Assembly (NCBI GenBank): GCA_965368975.1
Contig: CBDUPA010000003.1
Location: 288,001 to 352,000, forward strand
From: an uncultured bacterium
GTDB lineage: Bacteria; Acidobacteriota; Thermoanaerobaculia; Multivoradales; JAHZIX01
Length of the DNA: 64,000 bases
Direction of reading: 5' to 3'
The stretch's first letter is position 1, and the number at the start of each line of letters is the position of its first letter. Shown one piece after another: positions 4,101 to 60,337 of the stretch. The notes below the pieces were generated by a model. That model had not been told where the DNA came from. It did no database searches and saw only the letters and a program-made list of their open reading frames with translations. The position numbers and the translations under genes are program-made.

Positions 4101-7100
4101 TCAGGGCCAGTCGTGGATCGCACGTGGGTCGCCGCTGAGCCGGAAGCCGGCCCAGAAGTACGGTGGATAGTGCTCGGCCAGGGCCAACTGCGCCCGCCGC
4201 AACGCTTCGTCCTTGGGCAGGCCATCGAGGAGCCCCTGGTAGAGCTGCAGCATCAGCACCTCCGTCGCCACATCCGCCACCGTCCACAGTGAGGCCAGTA
4301 CGGCACGGGCTCCAGCGACTTCGAAAGCCCGCGTCATGCCGACGAGGCCTTCGCCGCGCACGTGCTCGCCGAGCGCGGTCTGGCAGGCGGACAGGACGAC
4401 CAGATCCGCGTCCAGCTGCAGCTCTTCGAACACTTCCCAGACCTGGAGACCACCGTTGTTCCGGTAGTCGAGTCGATCAGCTGGGTCCGGAGCCAGGAGC
4501 AAGGCCGACTCGGCGGGTAGCGCTGGCTCCAGCACGGCGTGTGTCGCTAGGTGCAGGACGCGCGCCGAGGGCGCCCAGGTGCGCAGCTGCCGCTCGCTGG
4601 CCTCGGAGCCGAGCAGCGTCTGTGCACCGGGCAGCAACGTGGCCAGAGCCTCGACTTCGGAAGTTGCTCCTGGGAGTGGGGGGAGGTTGGTCGAAGACCG
4701 CAGATCCGGTGCCAGGGCGACCAGAGGCACGCGTCGACCTTCGTCGACGTCTTCAGCCTCGGAGCCGGAGCGGGTGGAGAGCTGCCGATGTTCTTGGTAG
4801 CTGGTCGCGGAGAGCGCGAAGTGCAGAGGTTTCCACTGCACCAAGGTCTCGGCAACCCTCTCCGTCGGTAGCTTCTTCGGCAGCGGAAGAGCCGCGAAGG
4901 GGAGCAAGTGGAGAGGACCGTCGGGAAGGAGCAAGAGCCGCTGAGCGGGCTCTAAGCTGGGTGCCGCGGCTGCCAGCAAGCGGTCGAACAGCCGATGGCC
5001 AAAGGCCTGAGCCGCGGCCAGGCGACGAGCCCCTCGTTCAGAGGTCTCGATCGCCAGCGCTTCCTGCAGTAGCTCTCGATAGCGTGCCACCTCGCGTGCC
5101 AGCTCCGCTTCGCCGATCCCGAGCCGAAAGACGGAGATCTCCTGCCGCGACTGCAGGAGGAACAGGAACGACTCGTGCTCTCCGACACTGAAGCTGAGCA
5201 GGGCTGTTCCCGCTTCCAGCTGTGCCAGGACCTCGCTGCTGGTCAGGGGCTGGCGCGCTAGCAGAGCGGGACCGGCTTCGCGTTCACCCAGCATTTCCAG
5301 CAGACTGCGCCCCAGCGAGCGCTCGTGGACATCGAACGCTGCTTCCGGCTCACCCAGCTCGATCAGCAGGCGCGTCCGTGCACGGTACATTTCCACGAAG
5401 TCGGCGCGAAAGCGGGCGCGCAAGCGGTGCGAGCCACCGAGGTGGTCGACCTGCCCCTCCAACGCCTGTAGACCTCGCCGTAAGGACTCGGCAGCCTCGG
5501 CACGGGCACCGCGCGCCAGCATCAAGCGGGCCAAGGCGTCGTACAGCTCAGCCGTCTGTGCGGTGGCTGGTTCCAGGCGCAGCTGCAGCTCCAGGGCTCG
5601 CCGGAAAGCTGCTTCCGCCAGCACAGGCTGGCCGGCGGCGGCGGCAGCGGTGCCGATCTGGAAATGGCTGAACACCACATCGAACCCCACGGCATCCTGG
5701 CGAGACGAGTCCACGGTCCCAGACTGTTCCCGTAAGCGCAACGCCTGCGTGTGCAGCCGCAAGGCCGTCTCCGGATCGCCGCCTTGCAGTGCCAGCAGTG
5801 CCAGGTTGTCGACCGCGACAGCTCGATCGAGAGGAGTTTCCTGAGACACGGCGTCGCGGTGGCGCCGGTACCAGGCGTGTGCCCCTTCGAGGTCGCCGTC
5901 CATGAGGGCCACGTCGCCGAGATTGAGCAGCGTCGTCGCGGACTCGGCCGGCTCGGTGGCGTGTGCCTGCTTGTGCTCCAAGGCTTCGAGCAGCAGCTCA
6001 CGCGCTCGCGGTAGGTCGCCGCGCTGGTACGCCACGCGTCCAAGGTTGTTGAGGGTCGAGCCGAGTTGGACATCGAAAGCAGAATCACGATCCACCAGGC
6101 GCCGCTCCAGTTCCAGGGCCCGCTGCAGGTAGTCCCAGGCCAGGCTGTAGTGCCCGCGGCTGATCGCCAGGCTGCTCAGGTTGTTGAAGGTACCCGCCAC
6201 GCCGGGACTTTCCGGTGCCAATTCCAGTCGTAGGCGAAGTGACGCGAGCAGATGGGCTTCCGCCTCGAGCGGAGCACCGCTCCGGATGGCGACATACGCC
6301 AGGCCATTGAGGGTGTTGGCGAGCGGCAGGCTGTGCGGCGCTCGCGCTTCCTGGATACGATGCGCGCGGCTGTAAGCGTCGCGGGCCGGTGCGGTCTCGC
6401 CACGCTGCATCGAGATGTGACCGAGGCTGTACCAGCGCAGGGCGACCAGCAGCGGCGTTTCGTTCTCGTCGAGTTCGGCCAGGTCCGCCTCGAAGGTCGT
6501 GCGGGCACCTTGCAGGTCTCCAAGACTGTATTGTGCTCTCGCCAGAGCATCGCGCAAGCAAGAGCGGGCCCGGGCCGCAGCGGCAGTGCCGACGAGCTGT
6601 TGTAGCCGCGTGATTCGCCTGTCCGGAGACAGCAAGCGCACACCTTGCCACTGTAGCCACAGCGCAGCATTCTCGTCGTGCACGCGGCCCGCCAAGCGTT
6701 GCCACGAGGAGGCCTCGGCATTGTTCGGGGGCAGTTCTGTCGCCGGCAGTTCGCTGGCTGGTACAGAGGGCCGCACCTTGACGCCCCAGGCTCCGGGGGC
6801 CACCGCCAGCGCGAGAGGCACCGTGCGCCCGTCCGTCTCGGTTCTTTCGCCGTGCAGAATTAGAGGGCCGCGCGCTGCCTGCTCGCTCTCCAGCCAGCAC
6901 CAGTCGAAGGGGCCCTTGAGATCTTCGGACACGGGCTCCGCGCCTGTAGCGCGAGACCAGCCGGTGAGCATGTCGCCGCGCTGGAGCCCGGCTGCCGCCG
7001 GTGCCGAGCCTGCCGGCACCTCCGTCACGATCACGCCCGGCAGCACGGTCAGTTGTGGCGGTACCTCGTCCGTCGCGGCAGGAGCACAAGCCCAGCCGAG

Positions 7101-7145
7101 GCACGTAGCGAGCGCGACGCCTGCGAGCGACCCACGAGGTTTCAT
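4101..7145 (-). CDS. PDZ-TPR-CHAT (caspase-like) protease, probable lipoprotein
   Basis: Signal peptide with lipobox-like LGWAC. PDZ-like GVIVTEVPAGSAPAAAGLQRGD. Multiple TPRs (ANTLNGLA, AGTFNNLS, STLNNLG, TTLLNLG). CHAT motifs LLPDGPLHLLPFAAL, VLHLATHA (catalytic His), VVLSACQT (catalytic Cys), ASLWTV, PYFWAGF. Confidence 0.92.
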   Translation of the reverse strand: MKPRGSLAGVALATCLGWACAPAATDEVPPQLTVLPGVIVTEVPAGSAPAAAGLQRGDMLTGWSRATGAEPVSEDLKGPFDWCWLESEQAARGPLILHGERTETDGRTVPLALAVAPGAWGVKVRPSVPASELPATELPPNNAEASSWQRLAGRVHDENAALWLQWQGVRLLSPDRRITRLQQLVGTAAAARARSCLRDALARAQYSLGDLQGARTTFEADLAELDENETPLLVALRWYSLGHISMQRGETAPARDAYSRAHRIQEARAPHSLPLANTLNGLAYVAIRSGAPLEAEAHLLASLRLRLELAPESPGVAGTFNNLSSLAISRGHYSLAWDYLQRALELERRLVDRDSAFDVQLGSTLNNLGRVAYQRGDLPRARELLLEALEHKQAHATEPAESATTLLNLGDVALMDGDLEGAHAWYRRHRDAVSQETPLDRAVAVDNLALLALQGGDPETALRLHTQALRLREQSGTVDSSRQDAVGFDVVFSHFQIGTAAAAAGQPVLAEAAFRRALELQLRLEPATAQTAELYDALARLMLARGARAEAAESLRRGLQALEGQVDHLGGSHRLRARFRADFVEMYRARTRLLIELGEPEAAFDVHERSLGRSLLEMLGEREAGPALLARQPLTSSEVLAQLEAGTALLSFSVGEHESFLFLLQSRQEISVFRLGIGEAELAREVARYRELLQEALAIETSERGARRLAAAQAFGHRLFDRLLAAAAPSLEPAQRLLLLPDGPLHLLPFAALPLPKKLPTERVAETLVQWKPLHFALSATSYQEHRQLSTRSGSEAEDVDEGRRVPLVALAPDLRSSTNLPPLPGATSEVEALATLLPGAQTLLGSEASERQLRTWAPSARVLHLATHAVLEPALPAESALLLAPDPADRLDYRNNGGLQVWEVFEELQLDADLVVLSACQTALGEHVRGEGLVGMTRAFEVAGARAVLASLWTVADVATEVLMLQLYQGLLDGLPKDEALRRAQLALAEHYPPYFWAGFRLSGDPRAIHDWP

Positions 7146-21892: not shown

Positions 21893-23449
21893 TCAACGAT
21901 TCCGCCCGTACTGTTCGTGGCTCGACACCCAGTCGAGCGCCGAGATCGCCGAGCCGAGGGAGATCTCGCCCGCCAGCGCGACGCCAGCGACGATCTCGGC
22001 GAACTTGAGCACCTTGCCCTTGCCGTAGCAGTCCAGCACCTCCAGGCACTCGCGCTGCGTCGGCAGGCTGGTGCCGCCGCCATAGGTGGCGACGATCAGC
22101 GACGGAATGGTCAGCGAAATGTAGAAGTCGCCGTTCTTGTCGACCTCGGTGTAGAGGACTCCGGCCGACGACTCCGAGACGTTGGCGACATCCTGGCCGG
22201 TGGCGATGAACATGGCGGTGATGGCGTTGGGCGAGTGGCAGCCGTTGTTGTTGGCACCGGAGAGGAAGGCGCCGATGTTGGCGACGTTCGAGTGGTAGTG
22301 CAGCGTTTCCGGCTCGACGCGCATGTGCTGGATCAGCACGTCACGCGGGATCGTACACTCCGCCGTCACGCGCTTGCCGCGCGTGCGCATGACGTTGATC
22401 TGCGACGCCTTCTTGTCGGTAGCGAAGTTCGATTCCAGGTAGAAGTGGCGCACGTTGTCGAGCTGGTCGAGGATCCAGCTACAGGCGGCGAAGGTGGCGC
22501 GTCCAACCATGTTCTGTCCCGCCGCGTCCCCCGTCGAGTAGTTGAAGCGCAGGTAGGCGAACTTGTTCGAGAGGTAGGTGTCGATGTAGACCAGCTTGGC
22601 GACGCTCGAGGTTTCCTCCGCGGCCTGCCGAATGTGGTCCATGTTCTCTTGGATCCAGTCGCGGAAATCGCGTGCCTGGCGCGCCGAGTCGAAGACGAAC
22701 ACCGGTGCACGCTGCATGACGTCGCCGACCACCGTGCAGGTGACGCCGCCCGACAAATTGAGCACCTTGATGCCGCGGTTGTAGGACGCCACGAGCGTGC
22801 CTTCGGCGGTGGCCAAGGGGATCAGGAATTCGCCGATGGCGTGCTCGCCATTGACCTGCAACGGACCAGCGAAGCCGAGCGGTACTTGTGCTACACCGGT
22901 GAAGTTCTCGATGTTGCCCTGCGTTACCGCCGGGTCGAACGAATACTTGTTGACGTGTTGCAGCTGGACGCCGGTCTGCTGTTCGATGAACGCCTGCCGC
23001 GCGGCGACAATCTCGGGAGTGTAGTTGTCTTCCTTGTCGAGCGGCACGATGGTGCGCTCGACCTGTTCCTCGATCGCGTCCTCGACCTCGAAGTCGAGGC
23101 TACCAAAGGGCTTGGCCTCGAAAGCGATGTTGATCCTGTGCTTGCCCTCGGGCAGAGCCGCGCCGGTATTGCACAGCACCAAGAGCGCCTTGCGCAGCGG
23201 GAAGTCGATCGGCGACGTCTCACTGATCTCCGTCGCCGCGACTCTGTGGTCCCCGAGGTCGAGCTGGATGTGCGCCACGTCGATCTCTTGGCCGTTGATG
23301 CGAATGCTCTTGACGCCAGTCAGGGTGGCGTCGTTGAGGCGGTTCTTGATTCCGAAACGCACGCCCTTGTCTGTATTGAGCAAGCTGCTGTAGGTGTACA
23401 GCTGGCGCAGAACCATGGACGGAATCTTGAACAGGTTGGGAAATTTCAT
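21893..23449 (-). CDS. Hydroxymethylglutaryl-CoA reductase (class I-like) with ~130-aa N-terminal extra domain
   Basis: NIENFTG, PLATAEGTLVAS, TGDAAGQNM, ESNFATDKK, ATGQDVA, ATYGGGT, LAGEIS and terminal His (SSHEQYGR). Confidence 0.9.
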   Translation of the reverse strand: MKFPNLFKIPSMVLRQLYTYSSLLNTDKGVRFGIKNRLNDATLTGVKSIRINGQEIDVAHIQLDLGDHRVAATEISETSPIDFPLRKALLVLCNTGAALPEGKHRINIAFEAKPFGSLDFEVEDAIEEQVERTIVPLDKEDNYTPEIVAARQAFIEQQTGVQLQHVNKYSFDPAVTQGNIENFTGVAQVPLGFAGPLQVNGEHAIGEFLIPLATAEGTLVASYNRGIKVLNLSGGVTCTVVGDVMQRAPVFVFDSARQARDFRDWIQENMDHIRQAAEETSSVAKLVYIDTYLSNKFAYLRFNYSTGDAAGQNMVGRATFAACSWILDQLDNVRHFYLESNFATDKKASQINVMRTRGKRVTAECTIPRDVLIQHMRVEPETLHYHSNVANIGAFLSGANNNGCHSPNAITAMFIATGQDVANVSESSAGVLYTEVDKNGDFYISLTIPSLIVATYGGGTSLPTQRECLEVLDCYGKGKVLKFAEIVAGVALAGEISLGSAISALDWVSSHEQYGRNR

Positions 23450-35441: not shown

Positions 35442-36536
35442 TCACGGTGTCACCACCTCGGTGGCCGGTCGGTTCATGCTCCAGTTGAACCAGAAGGTGT
35501 CGACGCCTGGCAAGCGCTGCACGGTCGATGCGCCCTCGCCGACGAAGCTTGCGGAGGCGGGGTCGAGTCGGGAACCCGACGCGCGGTGCACCCAGGTGCC
35601 GCTGTGCGCTTCGAAGGCGTCGCCTTCGGCCGGCTTCGGTGCCACGAAGGCGGCTGAGCTGCGGTAGATCGCGGCGCCTGCGGGGCGCTGGAGCAGGATC
35701 TGGTGGTCTCCCAGCTGCAACAATACCCCCGATCCGGTGAAGTGCTCGGAGGCTACAGCGTACGGAGTGCCCTCGAGTTCGAAGGCGAAGATGTGGGCTT
35801 TGGCTGACAGGCGAGTGTCCGCCAGCTGGCCATCTCGGAACACTCGATCGGAGGACAGGTAGTTGTCATAGGGATTGCTGTCCGCGTGCTCCTGCCCGCC
35901 GACGGAGAGCACGAGCGTGTGGGGGTAGCGACCCTTCCAGTCGGCCCACTGTGCCTTCTCGCCAATCGTGAGCTCGTCGAGCAGAGTGCCATCGAGATCG
36001 CCGGCGATGGCTTCCCCGTTGAGGATCGGCCAGTAGCTGTCGGTCTCGCGGTCCTGCATCACCAGCGTGGCGTGGATGAGACCGCCGGAGGGTTCGAAGT
36101 GAAGAGTCTTGCCCGCGTAGTTGCGGCCGTACACGACGGCCGTGTTGGCGAGCGGTCACCAGACTGCCGCGATCGGCAGCTCTCCCAGGCGATCGTTGAC
36201 TACTTCGTGCTGGTTCAGCAGGTTCAACGAGTAGGCGCGCGCCTCTCCGTCGAGCGCGATACCGAGGACCCAGGCATCCTCCGGCACGTCGGCTTCGTCA
36301 GCCGTCACGAAGTCGGGAGCGTGGATCGCCGGAATGCCGCCACGCGGTAGCAGCTGCTGGAAGCTGTCCGGCAGATCCGGATGCACTTCGGCACCGCGCA
36401 TTCCTGGCTCAGGAGGCTTGTCACGCACACCTTCGGTCGCGGCGCTCAGAGCACTCGGGCCGAGTGTCAGCAGCAGAGCTGGGAGCAGGGATCGCAGGAC
36501 GTGGCCGAGCGACACTGGGGTGTTTCGTCTGGGCAT
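35442..36536 (-). CDS. DUF3179-family exported protein, probable selenoprotein (in-frame TGA at 36156-36158)
   Basis: The 126 aa and 230 aa ORFs are in the same frame and joined by TGG TGA CCG CTC GCC (W-U-P-L-A). Family motifs GIPAI, ARAYSL..L..HEVVND, LVMQDRETDSYW, W..WK..YP.T and FWFNW span both halves. Confidence 0.85.
36124..36142 (-). promoter_or_regulatory. Candidate bacterial SECIS hairpin
   Basis: mRNA CGGCCGU-CGUGU-ACGGCCG: perfect 7-bp stem and 5-nt loop with G at position 2. The loop begins 20 nt after the UGA. Confidence 0.65.
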
Positions 36537-36893
36537 GGATACCTCCGAGGGGATGAGTCAGGTCCTTGGGGAGTGGCTGGCCACGGCTTGGTGCACGAGC
36601 AGTACGGTGGTGCCAGGGCGGATGGATTCTCTGTGGAGGCCTATGCTACATTTCTCGCGCTCCTTTCGCTTTCTTTGCTTTTCTGGCAGCGACGACCGAC
36701 TCCGAACCCGCGCTTCTGACGCCTGTGCGGTCAGGACTTTCCGTCGCTCCTGTCCACTCGCTTTCAAACACTACAGTCCGAAGATGTAGGCCGGAATCGT
36801 CCGGATGGCTGGGGCGCTGTCCGCGCTGCGTGAAGCGACTCCGCCTTGCCTGCATCTCAACCCTAGGCCTTTGGAACCAACAAGGAGGAGAGC

Positions 36894-37766
36894 ATGAGGC
36901 CGAATTCATCCGCGATCCGCGTCGTGGGTCTGTTGACGTTGTGTGGTCTGCTGGCGCTGCCGGCGCTGGCCAACACCGGTGTGGCATTCGTCCATGGCAC
37001 CGGCAATCAGACAGATGCCCTGAACGACTACTGGAAGAGTGACTTCGTCAACTCTGTACGCCAGGGATTGTCCAACAGTGCGAACTACACGGTGATCAAC
37101 TGTCAGTTCGAGGAGTACATGTGGGACTCCCAGGCCGCCGGATGCCTGGCGGGCTATCTCTACAACTTCATCACCAGCAAGAACATCGACGACTTGGTGG
37201 TCATCACGCACTCAAATGGTGGCAACGTGATGCGCTGGATCCTGTCCAACCCGACCTGGGACAGCCGCTATCCGACGATCATCAACAACACCCGCTGGGT
37301 CAACGCGCTGGCACCATCGAGCTTGGGCACGCCGCTCGCCGATGCCGTGATGAGTGGCTCGATCTTCGAAGCGGCGGTCGGCTGGTTGCTTGGTTATCAG
37401 AGCGACGCTGTGCGCATGCAGCAGACGTCGTGGATGGCCTACTACAACTCGACCTACCTGCTCGGTACGTCCGGCCGTCCCGCTCTACCGAAGGGTTTCT
37501 GGAACGTTGTTGGTACCGACGTCGAGACCGCGATTTGGGATGGGGACAGCTACTGCGGTGGTTACGACCTGAACCTTGGGCTCGAAGTGACGCAGGCCTG
37601 GCTCGCCAGCTGCTCGGATGGGTTCCTCGAGTGCACTAGCCAGGCGGGAGCCGGCTCGGTCTGGTTCTATGACACCAGCGTGACGGCTGGTGGCGAGCCG
37701 CTGAGCCACAACCAGAGCCGGCGCAAGTGCTTCAACCTCGACGTCATTCTGCGCAACGACCTGTGA
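36894..37766 (+). CDS. Secreted alpha/beta hydrolase (lipase-like)
   Basis: AGGAGGAG RBS, signal peptide ending ALA, AFVHGTG oxyanion motif, ITHSNGG nucleophile elbow, GTPLAD, SDG, SH. Confidence 0.8.
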   Translation: MRPNSSAIRVVGLLTLCGLLALPALANTGVAFVHGTGNQTDALNDYWKSDFVNSVRQGLSNSANYTVINCQFEEYMWDSQAAGCLAGYLYNFITSKNIDDLVVITHSNGGNVMRWILSNPTWDSRYPTIINNTRWVNALAPSSLGTPLADAVMSGSIFEAAVGWLLGYQSDAVRMQQTSWMAYYNSTYLLGTSGRPALPKGFWNVVGTDVETAIWDGDSYCGGYDLNLGLEVTQAWLASCSDGFLECTSQAGAGSVWFYDTSVTAGGEPLSHNQSRRKCFNLDVILRNDL

Positions 37767-37780
37767 GAAGGAGAGTAGAG

Positions 37781-39067
37781 ATGTCACGCAACTTCGTCTG
37801 GACCTTACCTGTTCTGCTTCTTGCCCTGCTTCTTGGGCTGGCCGTCCTGCCGGCTTCCGCGCAGCGCGAGACTCACGCCTCCCGGACCACCCCTGGTGAT
37901 CTGATCGATCCCGCGGAGATCGCTGTTCCTGCCAATCGCCCCGATGTCAGCCGCGAGGCGGTGACCTTCACCTGGGCGCTCGATCCGGCGCACGAGATCG
38001 GCAAGGACGAGCCGACGTATCCGGTGGCGTATAGCCGGCAATATTGGCTGCGCGTCACGCCCGAAGAGCTGCGTGCAGGTGTGGCTCTACCGACCACCTC
38101 GGCCGGCGCGCTAGTGCGCGTGCAGAGTTTCGACGTCGATGGCGATGCCCGTCCAGTCGACATCGACGCCCTGCGCGTCGCCACCCCCGCCGGCGAGCTC
38201 TTGGTACGTGGCGCGGCGATGGACCTGCTGATCGACGCCGAGAAGATGGACGCCGCGAGCACGCCGTTCGCTACCGGTACCGCAGCCTTCCGGCTGCGCG
38301 GTGACCTGGGAGCGGGGGAGTTCGTGGTCAGCGGTGAGGTTTTCGACGCTGAGAGCCAGCGGGAAGATCCGGGTGCCGACATCGACAGCATCCTGTTCCA
38401 CGTCTTCGAGCCAAACAGTGACGCGGTGCTGGCCCTGGCTGCCAACCAGGGCCACTTTCTGCACAACAGCGTGGCTCGCTTCACGGTCGAGTTGCAAGCT
38501 GAGGACGTCACTTCCGTTGCCCAGATCGACGGCTTTCTCGCCGCGCCTTCCGGCCAGGCCTGGCCGGTGACCTTCACGCCTGCTGCTGACGGTGCCTACG
38601 TGGCGCGCGTGCCGCTGAACGCCAGTGGCGAAGCGGGCTACCGAGGGTTGTGGCAGGTCGAAGCCGTGGTCGAGGGAGACGCGAATGGCCAGCGCGTACG
38701 GCGCGCGGTGCACACGGCCTTCGCCGTCGCACTGCCGACTGCTCGTGTGACGGATGTCGCACGCCAGCGTCAGGACGGTGTCCGCACCGTGGATGTCGGC
38801 GTAGAGGTTGCCGTCGAAGGTCGCTACGAGGTGCGCGCGGTAGTCTATGGCACGAACACCGAAGGGCAGCTACGGCCGCTGGCAGCGGCGCACAGCGCGG
38901 CATGGCTGGAGCCGGGCGAAGGAACCCTGAGCCTGGGCTTCGATGCCCAGGCCCTGGCGCGCGAGGGCTTCGGAGCGCCGTTCGAAGTACGAGATCTGCG
39001 CCTGATCGACCAGGGTCGTATGAGCCTGCTGCAGGAGCAAGCGCGCGGTCCGCGTTTCGATAGCTGA
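37781..39067 (+). CDS. Secreted DUF4785-like beta-rich protein
   Basis: AAGGAG RBS and signal peptide. SRQYW, L..GVALPTT..GALVR, HVFEPNS, GRYEVR..VYGT, APFEVRDLRLIDQ resemble DUF4785. Confidence 0.72.
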   Translation: MSRNFVWTLPVLLLALLLGLAVLPASAQRETHASRTTPGDLIDPAEIAVPANRPDVSREAVTFTWALDPAHEIGKDEPTYPVAYSRQYWLRVTPEELRAGVALPTTSAGALVRVQSFDVDGDARPVDIDALRVATPAGELLVRGAAMDLLIDAEKMDAASTPFATGTAAFRLRGDLGAGEFVVSGEVFDAESQREDPGADIDSILFHVFEPNSDAVLALAANQGHFLHNSVARFTVELQAEDVTSVAQIDGFLAAPSGQAWPVTFTPAADGAYVARVPLNASGEAGYRGLWQVEAVVEGDANGQRVRRAVHTAFAVALPTARVTDVARQRQDGVRTVDVGVEVAVEGRYEVRAVVYGTNTEGQLRPLAAAHSAAWLEPGEGTLSLGFDAQALAREGFGAPFEVRDLRLIDQGRMSLLQEQARGPRFDS

Positions 39068-59989: not shown

Positions 59990-60337
59990 TCAGCCCTCCG
60001 GTGATCCCAGGCGGTCCAGGTCGTCGTGGCCGACGGCGTCGTGCGCTCGGTAGAAGAGCACCACGGCGAAGGCAATGATGGCGAAGCCGATGACCAGTGC
60101 GGTAAGAACGAGCGCCTGGGGTAAGGGATCGGCGTACGGCAGTGTCAACGCCTCGGCGCCTTCGGGTATCAGAGGCGGTCGGCCGCGCGTCAAGCGGGCA
60201 CTGACGAAGAGCAGCAGGTGTGCGGCATGTCCGAGAAAGATCAGTCCCAGGATGACCCTGACCGGTGTGCGCCGCAGGATCAAGTAGAAGCCAGCGGCGT
60301 AGAGAGCGCCGATGACGACGGCGAAGAGAACGTGCAT
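59990..60337 (-). CDS. mrpC: Mrp antiporter subunit C
   Basis: ADPLPQALVLTALVIGFA. Confidence 0.93.
   Translation of the reverse strand: MHVLFAVVIGALYAAGFYLILRRTPVRVILGLIFLGHAAHLLLFVSARLTRGRPPLIPEGAEALTLPYADPLPQALVLTALVIGFAIIAFAVVLFYRAHDAVGHDDLDRLGSPEG

Follow-up and report, generated by a model that had tools for sequence, protein, structure and literature searches.

Two consecutive open reading frames (ORFs) on the minus strand of a 64,000-nt stretch of DNA from an uncultured member of the Acidobacteriota (contig CBDUPA010000003.1, positions 288,001 to 352,000; the whole stretch is termed the window hereafter) raise the question whether they represent two genes or a single gene, in which an internal stop codon is read as an amino acid. 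An initial annotation of this DNA had joined both ORFs into a hidden selenoprotein of the DUF3179 family, with an in-frame UGA at the position of the redox cysteine and a hairpin resembling a selenocysteine insertion sequence (SECIS) behind it. Based on the comparative data presented here, we consider it likely that the two ORFs are one gene for an exported DUF3179 selenoprotein, the UGA at codon 127 being translated as selenocysteine (Sec, U).

One frame and one domain across the TGA

The ORFs at 36536..36156 (126 aa, ATG start) and 36134..35442 (230 aa, GTG start) lie in the same frame, and reading the TGA between them as U over 36536..35442 resulted in an unbroken product of 364 residues, followed by a second TGA. 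The junction ...IAAVW-TGA-PLANTAVVY, as given in the initial annotation, was thereby confirmed as a single frame with one Pfam domain running across the TGA, and the read-through peptide around this codon is ...GELPIAAVW-U-PLANTAVVYGRNYAG.... The Pfam scan returned DUF3179 (PF11376) as the only match, covering residues 66-358 with 191.1 bits (cut-off 27, E 3.8e-56) and profile positions 2-291 of 292, while a scan of the read-through protein against NCBIfam returned no family. The composition is of the coding type in both halves, with a third-position G+C of 0.80 before and 0.86 after the TGA. Cys is absent from the product, in agreement with the initial annotation, and the letter C appears in the stored translation at the two TGA codons only (positions 127 and 365).

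The protein is probably exported, judging from a basic stretch, a hydrophobic core and the sequence ALSAA/TE at its N-terminus (Table 1) in combination with low model confidence in this region. In the AlphaFold2 model described below, residues 1-46, including the putative signal peptide, have a predicted local distance difference test (pLDDT) value of <50. Relatives likewise carry hydrophobic leaders at their start, distant ones with a lipobox-like L-x-A-C.

Conservation of the TGA codon and of the downstream hairpin

Searching a collection of 5.8 billion proteins yielded 115 matches for the protein. Full-length relatives (292-349 aa) at 40-52% identity show W-C-P-L-A-N at the place of W-U-P-L-A-N in the window protein, and distant relatives of ~30% identity, mostly named Acidimicrobiia, show Y-C-P-L-C-N. 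Within 36 aligned family members, the column aligned with the TGA is occupied by Cys in at least 90%, and this Cys/TGA pairing substantiates the earlier claim that the UGA takes the position of the family's redox Cys. Furthermore, 28 of the 115 matches are not longer than 240 aa, including the window protein's own entry, and all 28 represent C-terminal pieces; 21 of them begin at the same x-Y-(G/D/S)-R, eight residues past the TGA. Short C-terminal pieces with a shared start are the signature of gene callers halting at a conserved TGA. The window gene and at least 27 relatives are stored as such truncated pieces, and a read-through annotation restores the full domain.

On the level of genome contigs, a scan with the clade alignment confirmed 214 relatives. 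All locus counts given in the following refer to the best 80 of these 214, which exclude the window's own genome and have a top match of 56% identity. The codon aligned to the window TGA is TGA in 76 of the 80 loci (75 by pattern, L020 by direct reading) and TGC or TGT in three (L051, L058, L062), and P-L-A-N follows the aligned codon in all 80. These loci originate from metagenome-assembled genomes (MAGs) named Acidobacteriota (Vicinamibacteria, Thermoanaerobaculia, Holophagae, 'Multivoradales'), KSB1, Calditrichota, Krumholzibacteriota, Latescibacterota, Gemmatimonadota, Myxococcota, and Gammaproteobacteria. A single relative from the Acidobacteriota (L011:6364-6366) has TGG (Trp) at this codon with the rest of the gene intact; either the active residue could truly have been lost, or a TGA could have been misassembled.

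Relations between the Sec and Cys forms were visualized with FastTree on 110 rows, comprising 77 Sec and 26 ingroup Cys sequences, one Trp, and six CPLC outgroups, with the Sec column masked as X; it is a quick tree without bootstraps and does not fix the placement of the window protein itself. The x-P-L-A clade is split from the CPLC outgroup with a support of 100. Sec and Cys forms interleave within the tree, needing seven Sec/Cys changes, at least five of which are forced by well-supported branches. One Cys form (TGT; L062:1028-1096, and protein P0025) is nested beside the Sec form L075 and has kept all seven pairs of the SECIS stem; from the sequences, it looks like a recent Sec-to-Cys replacement retaining the SECIS.

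The hairpin itself is present as the initial annotation had described it, with a perfect 7-bp stem and a loop of five nucleotides (CGGCCGU / CGUGU / ACGGCCG), separated from the TGA by the 13 nt CCGCUCGCCAACA, the loop beginning 20 nt past the UGA. The consensus of bacterial SECIS elements (bSECIS), as summarized in the legend to Fig. 2 of a recent review (PMC13188914), allows loops of 3-9 nt and stems of 4-16 bp, places a G within the first two positions of the loop, usually with G or U behind it, and calls for a distance of 16-37 nt between UGA and loop and a minimum free energy (MFE) of ≤-7.5 kcal/mol. The window hairpin lies inside all of these limits of the bSECISearch model (5-nt loop, 7 bp, C-G-U, 20 nt, -12.4 kcal/mol). 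It differs from the SECIS of E. coli fdhF, which has a bulged U, in having none.

Thermodynamic stability alone does not distinguish this hairpin. The 43-nt fold (-12.4 kcal/mol, z -0.30) was matched in stability by 76 of 200 shuffled sequences and the 69-nt fold (-23.6 kcal/mol, z -1.35) by 20 of 200; G+C-rich coding sequence readily gives such stems. The significance of the hairpin comes only from the comparison with relatives. To this end, 69 nt around the TGA of the window and of 75 TGA loci were aligned without gaps (pair counts over 75 distinct sequences). The 7-bp helix is paired in 91.0% of 525 cells, compared with 22-55% after a shift of the 3' partners by 1-3 columns. Compensatory changes were found in three of the seven pairs, altered on both sides in 16 cells, with a covariation score of 0.112. 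Paired fraction, number of double-change cells, and covariation score were each reached by 0 of 500 shuffles.

The codon usage within the stem follows the same pattern. A change of GCC to GCU in the 5' arm (Ala, synonymous) is always accompanied by GGC to AGC in the 3' arm (Gly to Ser), resulting in seven U-A pairs. The Tyr codon in the 3' arm of the stem is TAC in 77 of 77 sequences, all of which also have C at the following third position. Beyond the stem, by comparison, Asn is encoded by AAC in 40 and AAT in 37, and a later Tyr column by TAC in 25 and TAT in 23; the genomes with invariant stem codons go as low as 45% G+C. The loop conforms to N-G-U-N-U in 77 of 77, divided into CGUGU (55), GGUCU (11), AGUCU (8), AGUUU (2), and AGUGU (1). 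Judging from these alignments, the downstream hairpin is under constraint at the RNA level. A covariance model (R1), built from an alignment of 76 TGA loci with the window left out, recognized the hairpin site on the 64-kb window with 81.6 bits (E 6.2e-22), the best of seven other matches having 9.1 bits (E 0.34); this score partly reflects coding conservation.

Several observations weigh against assigning the hairpin as a SECIS element, in addition to its chance-level stability. Two of the five covariation measures are weak, with the observed number of pairs changed on both sides reached by 43 and that of further pair types by 45 of 500 shuffles. RNAalifold kept six pairs and dropped the central one, and its covariation term amounts to only -0.25 kcal/mol. 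This central pair (columns 26-38) is unpaired, mostly as C-A, in 39 of 75 sequences, and a value of ≤-7.5 kcal/mol is attained by the 19-nt hairpin of just 32 of 77 sequences, with a family median of -5.6 kcal/mol (window -11.3 kcal/mol). About half of the family departs from the bSECIS consensus by a mid-stem C-A mismatch. The conserved peptide A-V-V-Y fixes much of the stem, and the three Cys-form loci still have five, five, and seven of the seven stem pairs. Finally, a scan of the whole window against Rfam gave no match at gathering score. An IRE_I (E 2.5) and an sRNA (E 8.7) near the hairpin were rejected as chance-level matches on the opposite strand. Weighing both sides, position within the bSECIS limits, covariation, and the R1 score uphold the designation of the hairpin as SECIS-like, and they provide a well-documented SECIS with covariation for a family so far backed only by prediction.

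The UxxA clade and the possible role of residue 127

The window protein has lost the second Cys of the CPLC motif. CPLC-type motifs, stated to be typical of the family in the initial annotation, are indeed the commonest form: a motif search by regular expression in 261 collected proteins counted 93 C..C, 43 C..A, and five C..T, with 109 missed, many of them C-terminal fragments. The combination of UxxA with a product free of Cys had been highlighted as notable for this gene. It is real in the window protein; its singularity did not hold, with x-P-L-A found in 80 of 80 loci. Other Cys residues were counted in 76 TGA-bearing genes (75 loci and the window, L020 left out) over a stretch that starts 70 residues ahead of Sec and ends at the stop: 56 genes lack any, 19 encode one Cys pair (spaced by 11 to 19 residues and located 176 to 208 residues past Sec), and one encodes a single Cys. 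From these sequences, UxxA with Sec as the sole chalcogen residue is a trait of a whole large clade and not peculiar to the window gene. Carriers of the Cys pair, which is absent from the window protein, include L005, L012, L014-L016, L068, and L073; the pair is located in a variable C-terminal loop, where it probably forms a local disulfide.

The family as such is already on record. DUF3179 domain-containing protein (PF11376) is listed in the tables of two reviews as a computationally predicted prokaryotic selenoprotein family with the motif UxxC/T (PMC9312934, PMC13188914), and both credit the prediction to Zhang & Gladyshev 2007 (NAR 35:4952), in whose text (PMC1976440), as far as its accessible part goes, new families appear under other names and the name DUF3179 does not occur. 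Together with three matches that carry the NCBI name 'DUF3179 domain-containing (seleno)protein', these tables agree with the earlier remark that some members are annotated as selenoproteins. The gene is therefore hidden with respect to gene callers, but not with respect to published inventories of prokaryotic selenoproteins in which its family appears. The window protein shares with the known DUF3179 selenoproteins the Pfam domain, Sec at the conserved Cys column, and a SECIS directly 3' of the UGA. It differs in the motif, being U-P-L-A with Ala in all 80 loci of the clade in contrast to UxxC/T in the review tables; the published motif leaves out this large UxxA clade. The passages on the family in literature naming DUF3179 or PF11376 mention neither a function nor the UxxA form. 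In this respect, the window gene is an annotation fix within an already catalogued selenoprotein family and no new kind, and nothing here is unexpected to a selenoprotein specialist. The additions are modest, namely a SECIS with covariation for a UxxA clade outside the published motif and a proposal, drawn from domain fusions, of what DUF3179 may do.

The structure was modelled with AlphaFold2 on the basis of a 36-sequence alignment, giving a mean pLDDT of 88.8 and a predicted template modelling score (pTM) of 0.83. Apart from the disordered residues 1-46, the model shows a single compact, mostly-beta domain from about residue 55, with a pLDDT of 97 around residue 127. Sec127 is placed as the last residue of strand 120-127, P-L-A-N forms a tight turn, and T-A-V-V-Y-G the next strand. 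No relative was found in the PDB by sequence profile (best E 0.12), and Foldseek of the model against the PDB gave 0 matches at E ≤0.001; the kelch, propeller, and toxin-domain matches that fell short of this threshold were discarded as noise (E 0.018 at best, TM ≤0.17). A thioredoxin fold with CxxC at a helix N-terminus does not describe this protein, which has no thioredoxin-type Pfam match, a mostly-beta model, and the motif UxxA.

Indications of a function came from the domain architecture of relatives. A search among cluster representatives revealed 8034 DUF3179 proteins at E ≤0.001, and 30 of the best 150, chosen by a length above ~440 aa, were scanned for further domains. In 12 of these 30, DUF3179 is fused to a thioredoxin-fold domain (11 AhpC-TSA/Redoxin/Thioredoxin, one DsbA-like), and one of the 12, P0258, has DsbD_TM in addition, a membrane domain of the DsbD/CcdA type. 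All 12 fusions combine CPLC in the DUF3179 part with an intact CxxC in the thioredoxin part. Fusion to thioredoxin-fold domains, a classic electron-donor architecture, would make the conserved Cys/Sec a redox centre served by the envelope reducing pathway and, as far as sequences tell, favours a redox relay over metal binding. The relay with an external reductant put forward in the initial annotation gains support from these fusions, which offer a functional lead for a DUF with more than 8000 cluster representatives. Sec/Cys pairs are established markers of catalytic redox Cys, as reportedly described by Fomenko and colleagues in 2007. As a further lead only, the ESM Atlas, queried with the Cys-form relative P0003, returned a 598-aa cluster at TM 0.80, all members of which have thioredoxin-type Pfam families. 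Other fusion partners of DUF3179 are fn3, NHL, VWA, an ArsP permease (P0164), SnoaL, and a Por secretion tail. Among the long proteins, the DUF3179 domain occurs twice in P0121 and five times in P0118, which also has fn3 repeats.

Some of the data speak against a redox role. Every one of the thioredoxin fusions falls into the CPLC branch and none into the U/C-P-L-A clade; carrying the redox argument from the former to the single-selenol clade is our own step. No thioredoxin-like gene was found next to the window DUF3179 gene, and no conserved partner gene in 80 regions (79 loci and the window). In the model, moreover, the Sec motif sits in a beta-hairpin turn, a geometry that is also typical of metal-binding knuckles. 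Taken on its own, a redox-relay role of Sec127 is given about even chances.

A true selenoprotein that binds or transfers a metal (e.g., Cu, Zn, Hg, or Fe), with Sec127 serving as a ligand and not as a redox-cycling nucleophile, is a fair rival, albeit one we rate as rather improbable. Besides the hairpin turn of the model, it draws on the ancestral C-P-L-C-G/N, which resembles the rubredoxin/zinc-ribbon knuckle CPxCG, and on H110, E111, N114, and D115, nearly invariant in the 36-member alignment about 15 residues ahead of Sec, which could add ligands. Where rubredoxin/zinc-ribbon sites draw four ligands from paired CPxCG-type knuckles or their equivalent, the protein offers a single chalcogen ligand, and the conserved His, Glu, and Asp are nearby in the sequence. 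Metal handlers are also found among the selenoprotein families of the same review tables (MerT-like, P-type ATPase, CobW-like, YHS; PMC9312934, PMC13188914), and the relative P0164 is fused to an ArsP-type permease. On the other hand, loss of the second Cys in a whole clade with the first kept or replaced by Sec is the usual pattern of redox families (CxxC to CxxS/T/A) and not of structural metal sites. The thioredoxin-fold fusions with intact CxxC in 12 of the 30 long relatives, one of them with DsbD_TM, are hard to square with a pure metal binder, although TlpA-type proteins also reduce copper chaperones.

Following the redox reading, we propose a sequence of events which builds on how bacteria are known to insert Sec. 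Codon 127, the UGA, would be recoded to Sec during translation, with the hairpin 13 nt downstream, within the T-A-V-V-Y-G-R codons, acting as a bacterial SECIS that binds SelB with Sec-tRNA(Sec) and brings the latter to the UGA. In the mature protein, Sec127 would be the sole selenol or thiol, located according to the model at the start of the P-L-A-N turn. Its most probable role, going by the family evidence, would be that of a redox-active nucleophile in a reductase or peroxidase-like enzyme outside the cytoplasm, whose oxidised selenium (selenenic acid or selenenyl-sulfide) would be resolved by an external thiol once the substrate has reacted. This thiol would most plausibly be provided by a thioredoxin-fold protein of the TlpA/ResA type, itself fed by a membrane electron carrier of the CcdA/DsbD type.

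Two known systems are comparable to this proposal. Extracytoplasmic reductases with thioredoxin-fold partners (TlpA/ResA-type in combination with CcdA/DsbD) have a reductase-donor architecture that is mirrored in the relatives of the window protein, and like them the latter is probably exported; unlike them, it is stand-alone, has no thioredoxin-like neighbour, and has a different fold without a PDB relative. PilB of Neisseria, a fused Trx-MsrA-MsrB protein, is an example of a reductase fed by a thioredoxin-fold partner. Sec glutathione peroxidases and 1-Cys peroxiredoxins, which need an external resolving thiol, resemble the window protein in having one Sec or Cys and no resolving Cys in the chain. 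In contrast to those enzymes, the window protein is not of the thioredoxin fold and has no GSHPx or AhpC-TSA Pfam match; a peroxidase activity is purely conjectural. More broadly, the U-P-L-A clade, in which Sec is dominant among the closest relatives, ranges over Acidobacteriota, KSB1, Calditrichota, Krumholzibacteriota, Latescibacterota, Gemmatimonadota, and marine Gammaproteobacteria. As a tentative idea, which we hold to be somewhat doubtful, its members might be widespread exported single-selenol enzymes serving as terminal acceptors of a TlpA/DsbD-type envelope reducing pathway and thereby constitute a new class of extracytoplasmic reductases.

Decoding of the TGA and genomic surroundings

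The selenoprotein reading presupposes Sec decoding, and we infer Sec insertion in this organism from the comparative data, as the window itself is silent in this respect: the 64 kb contain no tRNA gene and no selA, selB, or selD among the 47 ORFs scanned, which counts against this reading. Among the 37 window ORFs with a Pfam match, 29 stop at TGA and eight at TAG, so that TGA is an ordinary stop here and a global reassignment is excluded. Judged by DnaE (residues 1-500), the closest named relatives are MAGs of the Acidobacteriota/Thermoanaerobaculia, with 70-74% identity. Four of the 80 loci carry a selenocysteine tRNA gene (tRNA-SeC, anticodon TCA) no more than 3 kb downstream of DUF3179, in L020 at a distance of only ~90 nt (Table 1); at least those genomes decode Sec. 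The TGA at 59992 is the only other in-frame TGA of the window with coding signal on both sides. As a read-through candidate (59990-59992, minus strand) it was rejected, representing the junction of MnhC-like and MnhD-like Mrp antiporter genes in one frame.

The lack of Sec machinery in the window would also fit a TGA that is a real stop, either in a relic selenoprotein gene after loss of Sec decoding or between two separate polypeptides of 126 and 230 residues. The GTG eight codons past the TGA, used as a start by gene callers, and the role of TGA as stop of 29 of the 37 ORFs would suit the same explanation. Against it stand the coding-type third-position composition on both sides, the fit of both halves to the family profile without frameshift or extra stops, and the perfect hairpin, which is among the most stable of the family. 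In addition, residue 127 lies on a strand that makes up one hairpin with the strand after it, within a single domain, and two separate chains would cut through this hairpin. We regard a real stop as very unlikely. An artefact of sequencing or assembly, or a pseudogene in which TGC, TGT, or TGG recently mutated to a stop, would take a single base and has a parallel in the TGG of L011, but is scarcely credible given TGA at the exact codon in 76 of 80 independently assembled relatives of several phyla, the 28 of 115 database matches that are the corresponding C-terminal fragments, and the RNA-level constraint indicated for the hairpin.

Table 1. Positions of the features discussed, in window coordinates unless a locus (L) is named.
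Feature	Position	Strand	Remarks
Complete gene of the likely DUF3179 selenoprotein	35442..36536	minus	ATG at 36536; Sec codon 127; true stop TGA 35444..35442; 364 residues
In-frame UGA, proposed Sec residue 127	36156..36158	minus	motif W-U-P-L-A-N; column aligned with family Cys
SECIS-type hairpin	36124..36142	minus	stem 36142..36136 with 36130..36124; loop CGUGU 36135..36131
GGAGG ribosome-binding site	36542..36546	minus	5 nt upstream of ATG; read from sequence
Probable signal peptide (Sec-type export)	36438..36536	minus	residues 1 to ~33; R3, R4, R15; hydrophobic core ~13-27; ALSAA/TE; hydropathy scan
Spurious 'C-terminal ORF' called instead of the full gene	35442..36134	minus	GTG start, MYGRNYAG...; the window's own protein-database entry P0002, 230 aa
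tRNA-SeC genes near DUF3179 gene	L014:9089-9185, L020:6867-6961, L022:8522-8618, L027:2810-2904	opposite to DUF3179 gene	
ECF sigma/zf-HC2/PDZ operon	L014:2157-5627, L020:1729-5667, L022:3168-5583, L027:272-1562	divergent from DUF3179 gene	
DUF3179 + thioredoxin-fold fusions			P0121, P0174, P0177, P0192, P0196, P0218, P0231, P0234, P0246, P0249, P0258, P0261

With respect to the wider surroundings of the DUF3179 genes, the commonest neighbour family is an extracytoplasmic function (ECF) sigma factor, found in 12 of the 80 regions. A KSB1/Calditrichota-like subgroup has a conserved operon divergent from the DUF3179 gene, which encodes an ECF sigma factor, an anti-sigma factor of the zf-HC2 type, an uncharacterized protein, and a PDZ protein (Table 1). 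The ECF sigma neighbour hints at an envelope-stress control of the DUF3179 gene. The neighbours of the window gene, an alpha/beta hydrolase, an AMP-binding enzyme, and an NAD epimerase-like protein, are not widely common to the other loci. Divergent from the window gene (36894-39067, plus strand), an ORF of 290 aa precedes a DUF4785 protein of three domains; this ORF contains many Cys, begins with a hydrophobic segment, and gave no Pfam match. Two further genes on the minus strand of the window are unrelated to the selenoprotein: an HMG-CoA reductase with N-terminal domain (21893-23449), adjoining an ABC1 kinase-like gene, and a TPR-CHAT protein of 1014 aa (4101-7145).

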